Source: an uncultured Actinomycetes bacterium (GTDB taxonomy: Bacteria; Actinomycetota; Actinomycetes; S36-B12; UBA10799). Taken from it: DNA of 64,000 nt. Position numbers and translations under genes: made by a program. Each line of letters starts with the position of its first letter. Positions within the stretch are counted from its first letter, which is position 1. Of the stretch, positions 4,017-64,000 are shown in pieces. The stretch is taken from NCBI GenBank assembly GCA_964556255.1, contig CAZKVQ010000009.1, positions 582 to 64,581 on the forward strand, in the 5' to 3' direction. The notes below the pieces were generated by a model. The model was not told the origin of the DNA, did no database searches, and was given only the letters and a program-made list of their open reading frames with translations.

Positions 4017-5108
4017 ATGACCGTCCCGCCCGCAGTCGCCGATGAAAGTGGTCGGGCCGGCGATGCGGGGAGTCTGTCCCAGCAGTCCGCGGACACCGAG
4101 TTCCCGCCGGTCACGATCTACATGACGGTTCTGGATGAGGAGCGGCACCTCGCGGAGGTCGTGGAACACGCCCAGACGCAGGACTACCCGGGCGAGCTGC
4201 AGATCGTTGTGGCAGTCGGCCCTTGCAGCGACGGAACCCGCGGCATTGCCGAACGCTTGGCCGAAGAGGATCCTCGGATCGTCGTCGTCGACAATCCGAG
4301 CGGCTACATCGCGGCAGGACTGAACCGGGCGCTGGCAGCGGCTCAGCACGAGATCGTCGTTCGGGTTGATGGCCATGCGATGCTCCCGCCGGGTTACGTG
4401 TCGGAGGCGGTCGCCACGTTGCGGGCGACCGGGGCGGACAACGTCGGTGGCATCATGGCGGCTGAGGGCGAGACCGATTTCGAACGCGCGGTTGCCTGTG
4501 CGATGCGGTCCCCGATCGGGGTGGGACGCGCCGCCTTCCACACCGGTGGTGAGCCGGGGGAGGCCCTCACCGTGTACCTGGGTGCTTTTCGGCGAGAAGC
4601 GCAGCAGCGCGCCGGCGGATACGACGAGTCGATGCTGCGCGCGGAGGATTGGGAGCTGAACCATCGGATCCGTTCCAACGGCGGTCTGGTGTGGTTCAAC
4701 CCGCGGATGCAGGTGAGCTACCGCCCACGCCCCAACCTCCGGATGCTCGCACGGCAGTACTTCTTCTACGGACAGTGGCGAAGGGAGATCACCCGCCGAC
4801 ACCGGGAGACCGTGAGTCTCCGGTATCTTGCGCCGCCGGTGCTGGTGAGCATCCTCTCCGCGGGCACGCTGGCAGGCACCGCCGGGACCCTCGGGGGCCC
4901 TCGATGGCTGCGGGCCGGCTGGTTGGCCCCGCTGGGCTACGCCGGCGCGCTGCTGGTCGGATCCGCGGTGACGGGCCGGGATCTACCGTGGCGGATAGCG
5001 GCCAAACTGCCTGCCGTATATGCCACCATGCACTGCGCCTGGGGGGTCGGGTTCCTGACATCGCCGGCGGACCTGTCTACCCGGGATCACGGCCGAGCGG
5101 TGCGCTGA
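4017..5108 (+). CDS. glycosyltransferase family 2 protein with C-terminal membrane helices
   Basis: VTIYMTVLDEERHLAEVVEHAQTQDYPGELQIVVAVGPCSDGT...VVVDNPSG...VRVDGH has the GT-A fold and DxD-type signature. The C-terminus is hydrophobic. Confidence 0.85.
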   Translation: MTVPPAVADESGRAGDAGSLSQQSADTEFPPVTIYMTVLDEERHLAEVVEHAQTQDYPGELQIVVAVGPCSDGTRGIAERLAEEDPRIVVVDNPSGYIAAGLNRALAAAQHEIVVRVDGHAMLPPGYVSEAVATLRATGADNVGGIMAAEGETDFERAVACAMRSPIGVGRAAFHTGGEPGEALTVYLGAFRREAQQRAGGYDESMLRAEDWELNHRIRSNGGLVWFNPRMQVSYRPRPNLRMLARQYFFYGQWRREITRRHRETVSLRYLAPPVLVSILSAGTLAGTAGTLGGPRWLRAGWLAPLGYAGALLVGSAVTGRDLPWRIAAKLPAVYATMHCAWGVGFLTSPADLSTRDHGRAVR

Positions 5109-56356: not shown

Positions 56357-56733
56357 GGGGGTGACAGGTTTCGACACCGGTTGCCGTAAAGAGAGAAGCG
56401 AGCCGAGGACCCACGGTTATCTCGCAAACGATCCGTGGAAAACAACAAGTGCCGATACAAAGCGCACTGACTTCGCTCTCGCTGCCTAAGCAGCTGAGCA
56501 TTTAAGAAGTCCGTCAGACCGGGGATGTCTCCGACCCGGACCCTGGCGTCGACTAGGAGACTCGCCGAAGTCCCCCGCTCACGGGGGGACAAGGGACATC
56601 AATCAGTGAGGTAGGCCGCGTTCCCCGTTGTGCCACACGAATCGGGGAGGCCGAATCGCATCAACGTGGCTGCGCTCGGAGAAGTCTCGGAACAGTGCCG
56701 ATGGACGCGGGTTCGATTCCCGCCACCTCCACC
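56357..56733 (+). ncRNA. ssrA: tmRNA (transfer-messenger RNA, SsrA)
   Basis: The 5' GGGGGTG pairs with the 3' CACCTCC (including G3:U), followed by ACC. T-arm GGGTTCGATTCCC. The internal tag ORF GCC GAT ACA AAG CGC ACT GAC TTC GCT CTC GCT GCC TAA (56451-56489) encodes ADTKRTDFALAA, with the actinobacterial ...ALAA ending. A TACAAT box lies at 56334-56339 upstream. Confidence 0.9.
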
Positions 56734-58303
56734 CGACCGGACGGTATACGCACACCGGTCCGTTTGAGGAGCCAGCCCCCGCGGGGGCTGGCTCCTTTGT
56801 CGTGTCTGGGGTGGGGCGGGTAACTAACAGTGTTACGGCGACCTCGGGTGTCGGGATGCGCAGTATCGGCGTTGCGTCATGGCCGTCTATGTCAATACGT
56901 TCGATGAGAAGTTCCAGCAGCTGGGAGCGCAGTCTCGTGTTGCCGTTGCGCAGGGCGTCAGCGAATTTTGCTGCGAGCCCCTCAAAGTCCGTAGCGCGAG
57001 GACAGGCTGGTTCTTCTTGGAGTTCGTATTCAAGTTCGGTGATGCGAAGCTTGACGGCGGCCTCTTGGGCGAGCAGTTCGTCGTGGCGGGCTGTGAACAG
57101 CCGTGCCGGCAGGTCACCGCTTTCGTAGTCGGTGATGTAGCGCGCCATTTTCGCACTTAGTGATGCTGCCCGATGCCGCGCGGCTTTCAACTCGCTTGCA
57201 TGCTGGGCGCGTTCGGCGGCGCCGTGGTCGTGCTGGGTGGCGAACGCTTCGGCGAGCAAGTTGGTATCGGCCAGCGTGTTGAGGATGATGTCGATGATTT
57301 GCGTTTCGAGCGCGTCGGCGCGTACCCGGGTGCCGGGGCAGGACCGTTTGCGGGTCTTCAGTGACGATACGCACGAGTAGTAGCGGTAGCGCCCGGCTTT
57401 GGAGTGTGAGCTTGTGCCGGCGATGGCTCCTCCGCAGCTGCAGTAAAGGACCCCGGATAGTAGGTAGTCCGACGATGCACGGCGGGCGGCATCTGACCGG
57501 GTGCGTTTGGCGCGCAGGGCGGCCGCGGTCGCGAACATGGCCTCGTCGATGAACGCGCTGTGGGCCCCGGGCAGCCAGGCGCCTTTGTAGCGGATTTCAC
57601 CGATGTAGGTGCGGTTGCCGAGAATGTCGGCAAGTCTGGTGGAGGCCCAAAGTCCGCCGCGTGATGTTCGCAACCCGTCAGCGTTCAGTTCGTTAGCAAG
57701 TGCGACTAGTCCGACCTCGCCGGTGGTGTAGCGGGTGAAGATGCGTTCGACGATGGGAAAAGTATCAGCGTCGGTTTCCAGAATCCCAGTGACTTGGTTA
57801 CGCCTCAGCCCGTAGCACGGTACACCGCCGACTTGCAGCCCCCGGCTGGCCTTTGTGGCATTGCCGCGGTTGATGCGTTCGAGGATGCTGCGACGTTCGA
57901 ACTCCGCGAAGATGCTTAGCATCTGCATGAGCATCATTCCGCTGGCGCCTGTCGTGTCAAAAGACTCCGTCGCGGAACGAAACTGCACCCCCACTGCTTG
58001 AAGTCTGCGCACCGTGTCCATCACGTCGGACAGCGACCGTGACCAGCGGTCGAGGCGGTAGACGAGCACGAGGTCGAAGCGCCCAGCTTCCGCGTGCTTC
58101 ATGAGCCGCTGAAATTGGGCCCGGTTCGTGTTCTTGCCGGAGACGCGTTCGACGTAGTCGGCTGCGGCGACCATGCCCGGCTGGGATTCGATGAACCGTT
58201 GGAGAGACGCCAGCTGGGCGTCAAGGGAGTATGGCTGGTTCTCTTCGCCGGTGGAAGCCCGGCGGTAGGTGGCAACACGGACGACTGTGCTGTCGGTGCT
58301 CAT
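56603..58303 (-). CDS. large serine recombinase (integrase) of the ssrA-adjacent island
   Basis: N-terminal resolvase domain VATYRRASTGEENQPYSLDAQ (catalytic Ser) and LVLVYRLDRWSRS. Recombinase domain. Zn-ribbon CSCGG...YYSCVSS...RSCPG, followed by a coiled coil. The last ~65 codons are antisense to the ssrA terminator and the tmRNA 3' end, so the native C-terminus is probably near 56.8 kb. Confidence 0.9.
   Translation of the reverse strand: MSTDSTVVRVATYRRASTGEENQPYSLDAQLASLQRFIESQPGMVAAADYVERVSGKNTNRAQFQRLMKHAEAGRFDLVLVYRLDRWSRSLSDVMDTVRRLQAVGVQFRSATESFDTTGASGMMLMQMLSIFAEFERRSILERINRGNATKASRGLQVGGVPCYGLRRNQVTGILETDADTFPIVERIFTRYTTGEVGLVALANELNADGLRTSRGGLWASTRLADILGNRTYIGEIRYKGAWLPGAHSAFIDEAMFATAAALRAKRTRSDAARRASSDYLLSGVLYCSCGGAIAGTSSHSKAGRYRYYSCVSSLKTRKRSCPGTRVRADALETQIIDIILNTLADTNLLAEAFATQHDHGAAERAQHASELKAARHRAASLSAKMARYITDYESGDLPARLFTARHDELLAQEAAVKLRITELEYELQEEPACPRATDFEGLAAKFADALRNGNTRLRSQLLELLIERIDIDGHDATPILRIPTPEVAVTLLVTRPTPDTTKEPAPAGAGSSNGPVCVYRPVGWRWRESNPRPSALFRDFSERSHVDAIRPPRFVWHNGERGLPH
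56768..56800 (+). terminator. rho-independent terminator of ssrA
   Basis: Perfect 28-nt palindrome GGAGCCAGCCCCCG/CGGGGGCTGGCTCC (56768-56795), followed by TTTGT. Confidence 0.7.
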
Positions 58304-58969
58304 GTGAGGTGGTGCTCCTCGATGGTGGCGGACGGAGGGCTCGGATGGGTCCGTTGTCCGCTAATTTGCAACCTCCGCAAGCCCTGATGTGTTCCATTGA
58401 GTCGAGCAGCAGCGCGATGCTGCGTACTGCTTCCTGATAGGTTTCCTGGCCCATCGGCACTTTGGTCGCTGTATGGACGTGGATTTCGTTGGTTTGCCGG
58501 CGTCGCGCCGGAGGTCTTGCTTTGGATGGTCTCGTCGTGGATCCCATATCCGTCACAGTGCATGTGGCATCCGATTTTGTCAGTCGCCGATGTCGGTTTA
58601 CCTCGTCTCTACGCCCAGTGGCACATGCGCAAACCCGCGATCGGAGTCTCTTGCACATCGCATCAGCGCAATCCGGAGACCTTGGCCAACGTCGGGCGCA
58701 GGCTGCGGACCTGGATGTCGGGCCCCATCTGCCGAAGACAATTCGCCGGCGCCCCTGCGCCGCGACGGGTGTCGGGGGTTACTGGCAGGGTTACTACTTG
58801 ACGGTCGGTTTCGTGGGAGGACCGTTGCGACAGTGAAACCCCGGTCGAGTCTCAGCCGCGTTGTCGTGTCCCGACTAGGGTCGAACTTCGAGGTGGCTCG
58901 AGGGTCGGTGGTGCGGATTGTCGTTTGGTGGTCAAGACGGTGGAGCGAGTCCAGAGTGGGAGGGGTGAG

Positions 58970-61900
58970 ATGAAACAGAGTCAGCAATCAGGCGAGGCCA
59001 CGCTACGGCCGGGTGCGGTGGTGTCCGGGCTGGCCGGCCCTCAGACGGCGACGATCCTGTCGGTCATCAGGCTGACCGACGACTCGGCGACAGTCGTCTA
59101 CCGCAACGACGAGGGTGCGCTTGACGAGAAGATCGTGTTCGCAGAGCAGCTCGCCGCGATTCGGGAGGTGTCCGCTGGCGCGGCCTTCACCTTCGACGCC
59201 GATCCGGCCTCGTTTTGGCTTGCCGCGGAAGCTCGTCGGATGCGCCTGGCGTTCCTGTTCGATCCGCAGTCGGCGTTGGGCACCTCTGACGTCGACCCGC
59301 TTCCCCACCAGTTGAGGGCCGTCTACCAGGAGATGCTGCCCCGACAGCCGCTGCGCTTCGTCCTCGCAGACGACCCGGGTGCAGGCAAGACAATCATGGC
59401 TGGGCTGTTCATCAAGGAGCTGCTGTTGCGCGGTGACGCGTCCAACGTTCTCGTCATCGCACCGGGCTCGCTGGTCGACCAGTGGCAGGATGAGCTGTCG
59501 GCCAAGTTCGGACTGGACTTCCAGATCCTGACCAAAGACCTGGTCGCCGGGAGTGGGAACCCGTTTTCCCGCGGAGGGCTATGGCTCGCGCGCCTTGACG
59601 TTCTGGCGCGCAACTCTGAGAACATCCAGGACAAAGCCTCAGAGGTTGACTGGGACTTGATCGTCGCCGACGAGGCCCACAAACTGTCGGCATCTGTGTG
59701 GGGCGGGGAGGTGAAAAAGACCAAGCGCTACCAGATGGCCGAACGGCTCGGCTCTGCGCGCAATCTGCTGCTCATGACGGCGACGCCGCACTCGGGCAAA
59801 GAGGAGCAGTTCCAGTTGTTCATGGCGCTGCTGGACTCCGACCGTTTCGAAGGTGTGCCACGGGAGGGCACCCGCCGGGTGGACGTGTCCGACCTCATGC
59901 GCCGCATGATCAAAGAGGAGCTGCTGACCTTCGATGGCACCCATCTGTTCCCCGAGCGCCGCTCCTACACCGCGCGCTATCCGCTGTCTGGCCCGGAACG
60001 GGATCTGTATGTGGCGGTCTCGGACTATGTGCGCGACCAGATGAACCTTGTCGCCCAACTCGCCGAGGACGGCAAGCGCCGCGCATCGGTTGGTTTCGCG
60101 TTGACCACGCTGCAGCGCCGACTCGCCTCGAGTCCGCGTGCGATCCATCGCTCGCTGGAGCGCCGACTGCGCAAGTTGACCGACCAACTCGACGAGGTTC
60201 GCAGTGGCGGCGACATCACCGCGCTGTCCACCCCTGTGGTAATCGACGCTGACGACCTCGATGAACTGCCCGACGATGAGCTCGAGGCGCTGGAGGACGA
60301 AGCCGCGGCAGGAGCCTTCGCCGCCCGCACGGCCGAGCAGCTTGAAGCCGAGATCGCCGTGGTGGCTCGGCTGGTGGATCAGGCCGCCGCGGTGCGCCAC
60401 TCGCCGACTTACTCCAAATGGGATCGGCTGCGTGACACTCTCGACGACGCCCCGTTCATGCGCGACGGCGCTGGGCAGCGGCGCAAGGTGATCATTTTCA
60501 CCGAGCACAAGGACACCCTTGATGACCTGACCGAGCGACTGCGCGACTTCATCGGCCGCGACGACGCGGTCGTCACGATCCACGGTGGGACCCGCCGGGA
60601 GGACCGAAAGAAGGCCCAGGAGACGTTCCGCAGCGACGACGGGTGCTACTTCCTCGTCGCCACCGACGCCGCCGGGGAAGGTGTGAACCTGCAAAACGCC
60701 CACCTGGTCATCAACTACGACCTGCCGTGGAATCCCAACCGCATCGAGCAGCGCTTCGGCCGGGTGCACCGCATCGGCCAGCAGGAGGTGTGCCACATGT
60801 GGTCTCTGGTGGCCGCCGACACCCGCGAAGGGATGGTGTATGAGCGGCTGTTGGAGAAACTCGAACAGCAACGCCAAGCCCTGGGCGGGCGAGTATTCGA
60901 CGTCCTCGGTCAGGTATTCGACGGGACGTCCTTGCGTGACCTGATGATGGACGCCATCCGGTACGGCGACGACCCGGCCCGGCGCACCGAACTGCTCACC
61001 GTTATCGACGCCCACGTCGGCGACGGCATCGCGGAGGCCCTCTCCGAGGAGCAACTCGTGCCGACCATGATGGCCACCAGCGAAATCGACCAGGCTCGCC
61101 GAGAGATGGAACGGGCTGAGGCCGCGCGCCTGCAGCCCTATCACGTGGAGGCATTCTTCTCCGCCGCGTTCGCTGCAGCCGGCGGACACCTGCGTCCGCG
61201 TGAATCCCACCGTTACGAGATTCGTTCGGTTCCCTCCGTCATCAAAGACCAGGACCGCATCACGGGCTCCGGCATGCCTGTGGTCAACACGTACTCCCGA
61301 GTCGCGTTCGACCCGCGCAACCTGCGTATTGACGGCCACACCCAGGTCGCGGCACTGCTGCACCCCGGGCACCCGTTGATGGCCGCTCTCATGTCTGTCA
61401 CCACCGACCGTCACGGCGACGCGCTGCGCCACGGCGCGATCCTCGCCGACCGCTCAGACGCATCTCTAGACCCGTACGTCGTGTGCCTGCTCGAACACGA
61501 CGTCACCGACGCCCGTCGCGGCCGCGATGCTCAGCCCCACGTCGTGTCGCGACGTGCCCAATACGTGCGCCTGGATGTCGACGGCACCATCGCGCCTCTG
61601 GGTGGTACACCGCTGCCCAACCTCGAACCGCCCACCGACGCCGAACTGGTCCAGGCACGGATCATCGCCGGCCAGGACTGGTGTACCGCCGCCACGCTCG
61701 AGGACGCTGTGGTCAACCACGCCGCCGCAACCCTCGCCCGCGAACACTCCGAGGACATCACTGCCTCCACGAACGCCCGTATCGACAAGACCACCGCGCT
61801 CGTACGCGACCGGCTGACAAGGGAGATCAACTATTGGGACTCCCGAGCAGCCGAACTGCGTGAGGCCGAGCACGCCGGCAAGCAGACCCGGCTGCCCGCC

Positions 61901-62458
61901 TCCCAACTCCAGCAGCGCGCCGACGAACTGTCCCATCGCCTGGACCGCCGCCTGGCCGAGTTGGAATCAGAGAGAGCGCTTTCCGCGCGTCCGCCGCGCA
62001 TCACTGGTGCATGCCTGGTCGTGCCGCAGGGATGGTTCGAGGCCCTCACCGACCCAGAGGGTGCCGCCGCGCATGCCAAGGAAACCGCCCGCGTGGAGCG
62101 CCTCGCTGTCGAGGCGGTCCTCGCAGTTGAACGCGCCCACGGACATCGCCCGGTGGAGATGCCGCATAACAACCCGGGCTACGACATCGAATCCGACACG
62201 CCCGAGGGCCTCGACTTCATCGAGGTCAAGGGTCGCGTCGAAGGGGGCGACGAGTTTGTGCTCACCCGAACCGAGGCGTCGACCGCCCTGAATAAGGGCC
62301 GCCGCAGCGTCCTGGCACTGGTGCGCGTCGCCGCCGACGACACGACGACGGTGCGCTACCTGCGCCAGCCGATCACCCACCCGCTCGATCCGCGTGCACG
62401 GTCGGTCACCTTCGAATGGGATGCGATGTGGGACGACGGCCAGGAGATGACACCGTGA
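58970..62458 (+). CDS. SNF2-family helicase-related protein with C-terminal DUF3883 (PD-(D/E)xK-like) domain
   Basis: ATG 58970 follows GGGAGGGGTGAG. Motif I DDPGAGKT, motif II VADEAHKL (DEAH), motif III LLMTATPHSG, helicase-C LVATDAAGEGVNLQ and QRFGRVHRIGQ. The C-terminus GYDIESDTPEGLDFIEVKGRVEGGDEFVLTRTE is DUF3883/restriction-endonuclease-like. Confidence 0.9.
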   Translation: MKQSQQSGEATLRPGAVVSGLAGPQTATILSVIRLTDDSATVVYRNDEGALDEKIVFAEQLAAIREVSAGAAFTFDADPASFWLAAEARRMRLAFLFDPQSALGTSDVDPLPHQLRAVYQEMLPRQPLRFVLADDPGAGKTIMAGLFIKELLLRGDASNVLVIAPGSLVDQWQDELSAKFGLDFQILTKDLVAGSGNPFSRGGLWLARLDVLARNSENIQDKASEVDWDLIVADEAHKLSASVWGGEVKKTKRYQMAERLGSARNLLLMTATPHSGKEEQFQLFMALLDSDRFEGVPREGTRRVDVSDLMRRMIKEELLTFDGTHLFPERRSYTARYPLSGPERDLYVAVSDYVRDQMNLVAQLAEDGKRRASVGFALTTLQRRLASSPRAIHRSLERRLRKLTDQLDEVRSGGDITALSTPVVIDADDLDELPDDELEALEDEAAAGAFAARTAEQLEAEIAVVARLVDQAAAVRHSPTYSKWDRLRDTLDDAPFMRDGAGQRRKVIIFTEHKDTLDDLTERLRDFIGRDDAVVTIHGGTRREDRKKAQETFRSDDGCYFLVATDAAGEGVNLQNAHLVINYDLPWNPNRIEQRFGRVHRIGQQEVCHMWSLVAADTREGMVYERLLEKLEQQRQALGGRVFDVLGQVFDGTSLRDLMMDAIRYGDDPARRTELLTVIDAHVGDGIAEALSEEQLVPTMMATSEIDQARREMERAEAARLQPYHVEAFFSAAFAAAGGHLRPRESHRYEIRSVPSVIKDQDRITGSGMPVVNTYSRVAFDPRNLRIDGHTQVAALLHPGHPLMAALMSVTTDRHGDALRHGAILADRSDASLDPYVVCLLEHDVTDARRGRDAQPHVVSRRAQYVRLDVDGTIAPLGGTPLPNLEPPTDAELVQARIIAGQDWCTAATLEDAVVNHAAATLAREHSEDITASTNARIDKTTALVRDRLTREINYWDSRAAELREAEHAGKQTRLPASQLQQRADELSHRLDRRLAELESERALSARPPRITGACLVVPQGWFEALTDPEGAAAHAKETARVERLAVEAVLAVERAHGHRPVEMPHNNPGYDIESDTPEGLDFIEVKGRVEGGDEFVLTRTEASTALNKGRRSVLALVRVAADDTTTVRYLRQPITHPLDPRARSVTFEWDAMWDDGQEMTP

Positions 62459-64000
62459 CCCGCAAAATCATCGAGGTGGCGCTGCCTCTGGAACAGATCA
62501 ATGCCGCCGCGAAAGCGGACAAGGACCGAAAGACTGGCACCATCCGCAACCTGCACAAATGGTTCGCCCCCGCACCACTGCCAGCCTGGCGGGCGCTGCT
62601 GTTCGCTGCCCTCGTCGACGACCCGCAAGACGACAACCGCCGCGTCTACCTGCTCGACCTGATCAAGCGATTGGTGGCCAACGGAGCCGACCTGCCCGAC
62701 GCCGACACCCTCGCCGAGGCCCGGCAGGTGATAGTCGACCAGTTCCCGGATGGAGTACCCGCCGTCATGGACCCGTTTTGTGGAGGGGGTTCCACCCTGG
62801 TGGAGGCTCAACGACTGGGCCTGCCAACCTTCGGATCCGACTTGAACCCGGTGCCGGTGCTCATCACCCGCACCCTGACCGAACTGCTGCCGAAGGTGTA
62901 CGGTCAGCAGCCGCTTCATCCCGAGACCGAAGCCGACCGCGACCAAGCCAAGAAGGGAACCAAAGGCCAAATCCCACTCGACTCCAGAGACCGGCCTCTC
63001 ATCTACTCGGGCTTCGACGGGCTCATCCGCGACGTCACCTACTACGCCGAACAGGTCCGCGACCGGGCATGGGAACAGTTGAAGGACAACTACCCATCTG
63101 AGCCTGGCGAGACGCCGATCGCGTGGCTGTGGGCGCGTACCGTGACCTGCCCGAACCCGGCCTGCGGCATCGAGACCGTCCTGTCAACCTCGTGGTGGCT
63201 GTCGAAGAAGAAAGGCGACCTCGCCTGGATCTCTCCCCGCGTCGAGGACGGCCAAGTCGTGCTCGACGTGGTTAGTGGGCAGACGTCGGGCGAGGCGCCG
63301 GCGTCGCCGAAGGTCGGACGCGGCAGGTTCGCCTGCGTGGCCTGCGCGGCCACTTTGGGAGAGAACTACCTACGTGCCGAAGGCTCCGCGGGAAACATGC
63401 GCATTCGCATGACGGCGGTCGTCGCGGAGACCGAGAAGGGGCGACTTTACCGCGCCGCGACTGCCGCAGATGTGCCGACGGTCCCGACCTCGCCAGATGC
63501 GACCGGCGTTGGTGACGTCCCCATCGTGAAGTGGCGCTCGGTAAATGTCCCCGACTACGGCATCGACACCTGGGACAAGCTATACACCCCACGCCAACTG
63601 CTCACCCTCACTACGTTCGCGGACCTGGTCGCCGCGACCTACGAGCGCATTCTTGACGACGGCGGGTCCCGCGAGTGGGCGTCCGCTGTATCAACACTTC
63701 TTGGGTTGGCGGTGGGCCGCCGGGCGCGCTACGGATCCTCGCAATCGCAGTGGCGCCTCCGAAGTTCGGCTAATGCGAAAGCCGAGTCGGTCTATGCCCG
63801 CAATGACCTGCCCATGATGTGGGATTTTGCCGAGACGTTCTTTGATGGTGGGTCAGTCGGCGATTGGATGGACGCCTGCACGGGCGTCTTCAGATCGCTG
63901 GCATACGCTGTGCCAGGGAGCGGTTCGGCTGTACGTGGCGATGCGCGTTCCGTTGCCTTGCCTCTTGGGTCGCCGGGGTCTTTGGTAGCCACAGACCCGC
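62455..64000 (+). CDS. DUF1156 domain-containing Zn-ribbon DNA methyltransferase (COG1743-type), 5' 515 codons; continues past window end
   Basis: Hand-translated open frame from GTG 62455 (GTGA overlap with the helicase stop) to 64000, with no stop codon. It begins VTRKIIEVALPLEQINAAAKADKDRKTGTIRNLHKWFAPAPL. SAM motif I is VMDPFCGGGSTLVEAQRLG (62770-62793). The Zn ribbon is CPNPAC...CVAC. The window ends in ...LVATDP, the beginning of a DPPY-type motif IV. The ORF is absent from the track because it is open-ended. Confidence 0.85.
   Translation, partial: MTRKIIEVALPLEQINAAAKADKDRKTGTIRNLHKWFAPAPLPAWRALLFAALVDDPQDDNRRVYLLDLIKRLVANGADLPDADTLAEARQVIVDQFPDGVPAVMDPFCGGGSTLVEAQRLGLPTFGSDLNPVPVLITRTLTELLPKVYGQQPLHPETEADRDQAKKGTKGQIPLDSRDRPLIYSGFDGLIRDVTYYAEQVRDRAWEQLKDNYPSEPGETPIAWLWARTVTCPNPACGIETVLSTSWWLSKKKGDLAWISPRVEDGQVVLDVVSGQTSGEAPASPKVGRGRFACVACAATLGENYLRAEGSAGNMRIRMTAVVAETEKGRLYRAATAADVPTVPTSPDATGVGDVPIVKWRSVNVPDYGIDTWDKLYTPRQLLTLTTFADLVAATYERILDDGGSREWASAVSTLLGLAVGRRARYGSSQSQWRLRSSANAKAESVYARNDLPMMWDFAETFFDGGSVGDWMDACTGVFRSLAYAVPGSGSAVRGDARSVALPLGSPGSLVATDP

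Follow-up and report, generated by a model that had tools for sequence, protein, structure and literature searches.

The 64,000-nucleotide stretch of DNA analyzed here (the window) lies on contig CAZKVQ010000009.1 of an uncultured Actinomycetes bacterium. It contains two convergent, overlapping genes: ssrA, which encodes transfer-messenger RNA (tmRNA), and int, which encodes a large serine recombinase (Int). Beyond int lie genes of an Hma defence system. The ssrA gene (56357..56733/4, + strand; tag ADTKRTDFALAA), called by ARAGORN, is intact; it matched Rfam family RF00023 with 142 bits over model positions 1-374 and is not truncated. The genes on the host side follow the usual actinobacterial order, prfB-ftsE-ftsX ... 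smpB ... ssrA. The int gene (56603..58303, - strand) encodes 566 residues ending ...GWRWRESNPRPSALFRDFSERSHVDAIRPPRFVWHNGERGLPH*. An initial annotation of this DNA, made from the sequence alone, had stated that the int open reading frame (ORF) has no stop codon of its own and reads antisense into ssrA, ending at a TGA (56603-56605) 131 nt within the tmRNA gene. The ORF list together with the ARAGORN and Rfam coordinates confirms both statements. It had also correctly assigned residues 503-512 of Int (KEPAPAGAGS) to a terminator palindrome, which is a perfect one of 15 + 15 nt at 56767-56796, and residues 529-534 (ESNPRP) to the antisense of the tmRNA T-arm.

The domains that Pfam recognized in Int are those of serine recombinases only (Resolvase PF00239, residues 11-155, E=3e-36; Recombinase PF07508, residues 181-267; Zn_ribbon PF13408, residues 281-338), and no membership of the tyrosine recombinases was found. 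The best NCBIfam matches were CcrB with 149 bits and CcrC with 112 bits, against a family cut-off of 900, and we take Int to be a CcrB/DsiB-like large serine recombinase. Across 28 aligned sequences the catalytic S17 and the zinc-ribbon cysteines C288, C290 and C311 are invariant, and C322 is nearly so. An AlphaFold model based on this alignment has a mean pLDDT of 81.7 and is confident to about residue 495. It contains a coiled coil at residues ∼347-427, formed by long antiparallel helices (347-394 and 400-427), and a zinc-ribbon domain closed by strands 467-473 and 476-481. Sequence conservation stops at TPILRIP (residues 478-484). By Pfam, the alignments and AlphaFold, the conserved folded part of Int thus comprises residues 1-484 (56852..58303, - strand), while pLDDT falls below 50 at residues 498-548 and 560-566. 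Among deposited phages no close relative of Int was found, every match being <30% identical, and an exact look-up of the 566-residue Int and of protein P0059 returned no contig on record.

The position of the island boundary was given by L001, an 11,288-bp ENA metagenome contig encoding protein P0001. Positions 58435..56727 of the window correspond to positions 1-1709 of L001 with 100% identity over 1,709 bp, after which the two have nothing further in common. P0001 (540 residues) is the same as Int through residue 526 and then ends ...VGWR|QVPSSGCLPLGSIT*, so that 14 residues follow the identical stretch in P0001 and 40 in the window. The break point falls within the 3′ strand of the acceptor stem, at CAC|CTCCACC. 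Since the identity extends to 56727, int, an inverted repeat GTAAC-N7-GTTAC (56820..56836, + strand), the terminator hairpin and the last 7 tmRNA nucleotides (CTCCACC) move together; the last nucleotides of ssrA, from about 56730 onward, are supplied by the island. Two parts can therefore be distinguished in Int beyond its conserved fold. Residues 485-525 (56729..56851, - strand), marked off by conservation, G+C content by codon position and pLDDT, form an element-borne, non-conserved tail that reads across GTAAC-N7-GTTAC, the hairpin and the P′ arm of the attachment (att) site. Residues 526-566 and the TGA (56603..56728, - strand), which lie beyond the L001 divergence, are host-encoded and antisense to tmRNA. 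The number of host-derived codons, put at about 65 by the initial annotation, is thus 41. Its expectation that different junctions would give different C-termini is borne out by the 566 residues of Int and the 540 of P0001.

We also compared these two junctions with a third. The protein with a RAMA domain that flanks the L001 junction has a 93%-identical copy on contigs L166 and L167, where CCTCCAC and after it an unrelated hairpin adjoin the same island end, making an attR-like junction. In a three-way alignment of the window, L001 and L166, only CTCCAC is common at the switch point. Three junction types are therefore seen: tmRNA, core and P′ in the window; island end, core and P′ in L001; island end, core and a different trailer in L166. 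From the L001 divergence and this alignment, the common core was placed at 56727..56732 (+ strand), with the crossover inside it, and 6-7 nt of tmRNA sequence are common to L001 and the window. The L001 junction is of the P-core-P′ type, with a weak two-fold symmetry (15/30). In its far arm the outer motif of the family (described below) is absent in the attP and attB registers alike, and Rfam detected nothing tRNA-like on the far side. The far DNA has a G+C content of 61%, lower than that of the host (67%) and of the island (65%). L001 could represent either this element as an excised circle or the junction of two tandem islands at ssrA. On either identity, recombination at the putative core gives the same integrase another C-terminus, and the identical int copy on another left flank is an indirect pointer to attP x attB integration.

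A search with SmpB for an empty ssrA site in the genome collection gave a best match of 79% identity and no same-species attB. The 80 loci recovered in this search showed native ssrA downstream regions and yielded 3 more cases of int next to ssrA. In other Actinomycetota, native ssrA genes whose T-arm and acceptor are identical to those of the window have differing trailers, each with its own hairpin, and in none of these trailers was the CGACCGGACGG... sequence of the window present. The predicted attB end is ...CACCTCCACC(A), followed by a different hairpin. The integrated tmRNA gene ends ...CTCC-A-CC-C (56731-56734), which leaves the terminal A of CCA unencoded, while island-free relatives with the same T-arm encode CTCCACCA. 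In several subfamilies the P′ arm starts directly past ACC. Exact-DNA scans for the P′ arm in metagenome and viral collections, and for the L001 far-side junction in viral collections, gave no match. No direct repeats of the ssrA 3′ end of at least 10 nt were found downstream of int in L020, L026, L053 and L018.

The geometry of the attachment site was derived from the relatives of the element. In 55 junctions with a tRNA-like flank, the distance from GGTTCG in the element arm to the antisense T-loop pentamer (CGAAC, TGAAC or CAAAC) is exactly 44 bp. Five junctions without a tRNA flank (L105, L110, L116, L136 and L156) have a mirror copy as their second motif, at a distance of exactly 49 bp, and no other motif spacing within 38-55 bp was seen. 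These spacings come from L086-L165 together with L002, L003, L004, L026 and L085. A 5-bp offset between attB and attP half-sites is reportedly known for large serine integrases. With this offset, the spacings of 44 and 49 bp set the centre directly after the third base of CTC|CAC(C), at 56729|56730 in the window, and the half-sites behind this centre measure 25/19 nt and 25/24 nt. The attP half-sites are thus about 5 bp longer than those of attB at the level of the family, and the window is in the 44-bp register. The predicted central dinucleotide is CC at 56729-56730, and the codon of W525 straddles the predicted crossover. The GTTCG of the tmRNA T-loop (56711..56715, + strand), 15-19 nt from the predicted centre, fits the 44-bp register of the family and appears to act as the outer motif by which the chromosomal (B) half-site is recognized. 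On the other side, CGCAC at 56749-56753, 20-24 nt from the centre, occupies the position of CGAAC in the relatives. The T-arm would thus serve as the chromosomal half-site, and the element half-site, P′, would have its motif 5 bp further out. At L116 (∼4440-4500) the site is an attP-type, near-perfect mirror, GGTTCGCGTTAT...ATAACGCGAACC; the int ORF there stops within P′ (VRVM*, with TAA for the GAA of relatives), an exception to the rule of the open frame.

The element-borne P′ arm (56730..56760, + strand) is identical in L001 and shares its register with those of L002, L004, L085, L026 and the VRAPSRS subfamily. It contains an internal palindrome, GACCGG (56735-56740) and CCGGTC (56755-56760). 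Palindromes are found at the equivalent place in L002 (GGGACCCC...GGGGTCCC) and in L111 and L004 (TTGTTCG...CGAACAA); the ssrA trailer would thereby gain another hairpin immediately ahead of the terminator hairpin. The latter (56767..56800, + strand), identified by repeat search and RNAfold, consists of the palindrome described above followed by TTTG, and lies within the int frame at residues 502-513. The initial annotation had regarded it as host DNA. That assignment is rejected by its presence in L001, which means that the hairpin moves with int. The possibility, also raised there, that both the terminator and the tmRNA-like segment are carried by the island holds for the terminator but not for the part antisense to tmRNA. 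On integration ssrA loses the terminator that it had, for which the element provides a substitute. An 11-16-bp G+C-rich hairpin is present in seven elements that target ssrA or a tmRNA-like gene (the window, L002, L026, L020, L162, L111 and L085), while that of L004 is weaker than in the other such relatives. In all ssrA-targeting relatives examined, the hairpin is within the open frame, flanked by the P′ arm on one side and the conserved end of int on the other.

Read-through into the target gene proved to be a habit of the family. We examined 80 metagenomic relatives of 33-43% identity, which are not independent loci. The int stop lies inside an antisense tRNA or tmRNA gene called by ARAGORN in 38 of them, int enters such a gene in 7 more, and in 16 others the tail corresponds to a tRNA fragment or the ORF runs off the contig, so that in 61 of 80 the frame reads antisense into a tRNA or tmRNA; neither feature is seen in only about a dozen. 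The called targets in the 38 + 7 loci are Ala (10), Val (7), Ile (7), Leu (5), Arg (5), Glu (4), Met (3) and tmRNA (4). After a variable linker, most homologues end V-R-x5-VEVxG[ILF]EP, which is the antisense translation of the element arm, the acceptor strand of the tRNA or tmRNA and the T-loop. An int gene antisense to and overlapping ssrA was found in L002 (with smpB adjacent), in L026 (Tamaricihabitans halophyticus), in L020 (Saccharopolyspora thermophila, frameshifted) and in metagenome contigs L111, L146, L155 and L162. In S. thermophila JCM 10664 (L020 11086-12815) the frameshift splits the integrase into ORFs of 201 and 458 residues, and that island is probably decaying. P0002 (L085), the nearest homologue at 40% identity, uses the same frame as the window and stops one codon past the crossover (GWS*). 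P0006 and P0008, about 95% identical, are at different targets: the P0006 tail, read by eye, is the antisense of tRNA-Ala(UGC), and P0008 (L004 7585-7645) reads into a tmRNA-type acceptor and T-arm. The tail of the 540-residue P0007 is similar to that of P0008 at the protein level. The difference in target between P0006 and P0008 fits recognition of a shared ...GCTCCACC acceptor end plus T-arm.

We believe that the locus is best explained as an island carrying Hma whose integrase has inserted it at the 3′ end of ssrA, with the att core inside the int reading frame, and we assign this explanation a probability of roughly 0.7. The island would insert at ssrA of an uncultured high-G+C actinobacterium via the CTCCAC core. 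The conserved fold of Int ends at residue 484 and is followed by no stop codon ahead of the core. Translation, if it reaches there, would thus traverse the hairpin, then the P′ arm and the core, and continue in the sequence beyond, which amounts to 41 tmRNA-antisense codons in the window and 14 other codons in L001. The tail would then be a tolerated, disordered by-product of an attP that overlaps the 3′ end of int, with no built-in switch. G+C content by codon position is.64/.50/.73 in residues 1-484 and a flat.64/.67/.69 in residues 485-526, and from this composition and the model the tail looks non-functional. The length of the host-encoded tail in relatives ranges from 1 residue (L085) to >40. 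Any regulatory effect more likely comes from convergent ssrA transcription and the hairpin than from the amino-acid tail. The int tail remained free of stops in 13% of shuffles, and 33-39% of all 82-codon stretches are open in this window of 67% G+C. The open tail at this single locus is within chance, and it is non-random at the family level only.

Several observations weigh against this explanation. The outer motif of the P′ arm is degenerate in the window, TGTGCG compared with GGTTCG. The non-int side of L001 has no inverted family outer motif, and consequently L001 may be a junction between tandem islands rather than an excised circle. Neither attB nor attR of this element was found, the contig of the window being 65,292 bp long. 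Furthermore, from the conserved end of int to the T-loop the int frame is stop-free in all 61 evaluable relatives, while the other two frames have at least one stop in 18 and 23 of these 61 loci (30-38%). Most lineages in the protein alignment, as well as almost every metagenomic tail, keep one frame through the att site, the lineage of the window and L085 standing apart. These counts give a hint that reading through attP could be of consequence. Because the loci are not independent of one another and the short P′ arm is under constraint for binding, we regard the counts as weak evidence for selection on the translation of attP.

The last of these points bear on the proposal of the initial annotation that exchange of the tail is a functional switch, such that the integrated and attP forms of Int differ in activity, stability or directionality. 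The tails of Int and P0001 do truly differ, the frame that stays open is shared by most lineages, and the ORF runs through the whole site in the attP-type junctions L105, L110, L136 and L156. Nothing was found in support of a directionality or expression switch as such. The tail has no coding signature and is predicted to be disordered; its host-encoded part is dictated by the targeted tRNA or tmRNA and the frame, giving 1 residue in L085 and 41 in the window; the window and L085 read another frame than the rest of the family; the attP-type L116 has a stop inside P′; and the short conserved arm may lack stops simply through its constraint as a binding site. We consider such a switch unlikely. 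In a broader version, Int belongs to a large, little-described clade of CcrB/DsiB-like serine integrases for which the universal T-loop, together with the 3′ acceptor strand, of a tRNA or tmRNA gene serves as attB and whose frames are kept open through attP by selection; an att-encoded tail, or a non-stop int message that ends at the built-in ssrA terminator and is handled by tmRNA, would then set the level or directionality of the integrase, depending on whether the element is integrated, excised or part of a tandem array. That the open frame is selected in this way seems distinctly unlikely. Still less probable, and very unlikely in our estimate, is that the island is a fossil with a decaying integrase and chance read-through in G+C-rich DNA. 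The shuffling frequency given above and the frameshift in the relative L020 would agree with decay. Yet Int retains S17, the Arg residues and the full set of four zinc-ribbon Cys, and the model is confident to residue 495; the 100%-identical int copy in a different junction argues for recent mobility; and read-through is found family-wide.

Two further explanations are less probable still. int transcripts might end at the hairpin, or be cut short by convergent ssrA transcription, and the resulting non-stop message would lead tmRNA to tag Int for degradation and keep it low. No stop lies upstream of the very stable hairpin in the seven elements listed above (with the weaker one of L004), and int and ssrA do converge. 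This idea is an inference only; past the hairpin the int strand reads CTCAAAC, which lacks a U-tract, and tRNA-targeting relatives that have no hairpin nevertheless show the same open frame. We give it a very slight probability. The reading offered by the initial annotation, with the crossover near 56820-56836 and the hairpin and everything leftward of it (some 65 codons) derived from the host, is almost certainly wrong. The inverted repeat exists and is close to the end of the conserved domain of Int. However, L001 is identical through the repeat, the hairpin and the P′ arm, and the centre that the family geometry sets in the acceptor strand leaves the repeat within the element, about 95 bp in from its edge. 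The recurrence of the motif upstream of int means that 56820-56836 is not a junction, and together with the position of the repeat inside the stretch shared with L001 it rules out GTAAC-N7-GTTAC as the crossover. A chimeric assembly of L001 would be an escape from this conclusion, and is unlikely given the k-141 assembly and the 6-7-nt overlap. What stands of the original proposal is that the crossover lies at the 3′ end of int, with the att core inside its frame.

The preferred explanation, an integrase whose frame runs through its own att core, has precedents. In myxophage Mx8, attP lies within the intP coding region and integration alters the 3′ end of the gene, the prophage form having a documented altered activity. 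Mx8 IntP differs in being a tyrosine recombinase with another mechanism, and it is not homologous to Int. The closest precedent is the set of ssrA-specific islands of Dehalococcoides, in which the 540-residue, CcrB-like DsiB is encoded beside attL (McMurdie et al. 2011, BMC Genomics 12:287, PMC3146451). The overlap of the DsiB ORF across attL and the hypothesis of a changing tail were already described there, as were tandem island arrays at ssrA. The locus in the window is a further example of this known overlap between int and ssrA and no new mechanism. Like DsiB, Int is a large serine recombinase that adjoins attL, antisense to ssrA, with its stop outside the island. Proteins P0006-P0010 (530-547 residues), probably of the DsiB type, are 32-34% identical to Int and have the P′ arm in the same register. 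P0007 and P0008 match the published 540 residues of DsiB, a likeness of length and description rather than of the DsiB sequence itself, and Int and P0007 both match CcrB best in NCBIfam, far below the cut-off, as that paper reports for DsiB. There are several differences. The host of the DsiB islands is a member of the Chloroflexota and that of the window an actinobacterium; the core is 6-7 bp in the window compared with a 20-bp direct repeat in Dehalococcoides, where insertion was mapped to the T-loop; and the tail is read in a different frame. The six-gene Dehalococcoides module (dsiB, dsiA, recF-like, parB, mom and an embedded tRNA-like gene) is not found in the window, which has Hma cargo, no small serine recombinase and a strong terminator within the ORF.

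Other systems resemble Int in part. CcrB and CcrC of SCCmec are also large serine recombinases, and the gene at whose 3′ end they insert islands is likewise conserved and single-copy, but it is rlmH/orfX and not a tRNA or tmRNA gene, and the window has no CcrA-like partner. The serine recombinases of Mycobacterium AICEs insert in a tRNA-Leu gene (Ghinet et al. 2011, PMC3218068), and the metagenomic relatives studied here include tRNA-Leu targets. phiRSM uses a small serine recombinase at tRNA-Ser. Both are set beside Int by description, and the available descriptions report no overlap of int and att. Tyrosine-integrase islands at ssrA (Williams 2003; Islander, PMC4383910) share the target gene, and there the island restores the 3′ end of the tRNA or tmRNA gene; they differ from the window in the recombinase family. 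The Islander paper (2015, PMC4383910) spoke of serine integrases at tRNA genes as unknown, and Ghinet et al. (2011, PMC3218068) spoke of them as rare.

The cargo of the island begins 620 bp beyond int. hmaA (58925..62458, + strand) encodes the SNF2-type helicase of the Hma defence system (PADLOC PDLC00659, E=0, 1345 bits, full length), with Pfam domains ResIII, SNF2, Helicase_C and NOV_C. hmaB (62455..64000, + strand) starts at a GTGA overlap at 62455, encodes a DUF1156 adenine methylase (PADLOC HmaB, E=6e-92; Pfam DUF1156) and continues past the end of the window. Upstream of int, tblastx detected no small conserved gene that might encode a directionality factor. The GTAAC-N7-GTTAC repeat is one of two copies of a motif of ∼19 nt that brackets int. 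The other is in the intergenic region between int and hmaA, where a second copy of the 11-mer CGGGTGTCGGG is accompanied by GTTAC-N7-GTTAC (58766..58794, + strand). Copies of CGGGTGTCGGG are at 56845-56855 and 58766-58776, and the second repeat is at 58778-58794. The extended motif copies are GGGTAACTAACAGTGTTAC and GGGTTACTGGCAGGGTTAC, each beside an exact CGGGTGTCGGG, with the order swapped. The two modules (56817-56855 and 58766-58794) thus bracket the conserved coding part of int and its upstream region. GTWAC-N7-GTWAC occurs twice in the 64-kb window against 0.01 expected, and was absent from the 166 other loci. The paired motif could be an operator pair or the scar of a module exchange.

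The remainder of L001 (1869-11288) encodes a 925-residue GIY-YIG/RAMA protein, which has thousands of relatives at 60-68% identity, together with pieces of an Eco57I-type methylase (a type IIG-like restriction system) and a large protein with fibronectin-III repeats. No copy of the RAMA protein in any NCBI genome was found by homologue search. Extra fragments of the ssrA 3′ end (CACCTCCAC and CCCGGCACCTCC) are present in L166 (7956-8095) and also in L008, L012 and L065, 100-110 nt downstream of ssrA or of an island end. These stray fragments look like scars of repeated island traffic in freshwater Actinomycetota, and their occurrence in L008, L012, L065 and L166 suggests that tandem arrays are formed here too.

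These results set the boundary of the island at the last 6-7 nt of ssrA, show that it brings a replacement terminator and identify a serine integrase by which an Hma defence island is mobilized. The survey of relatives suggests that soil and freshwater metagenomes commonly contain serine integrases that target tRNA and tmRNA genes, and the breadth of the clade may be under-appreciated in that part of the recent literature which was surveyed. A predictable att geometry, with the T-loop as outer motif and spacings of 44 versus 49 bp, could aid island-mapping software, and the same geometry could aid the search for integrases with near-universal landing sites. Finally, the element offers two natural tail variants with which to approach the question of tail function posed in 2011 (McMurdie et al.).

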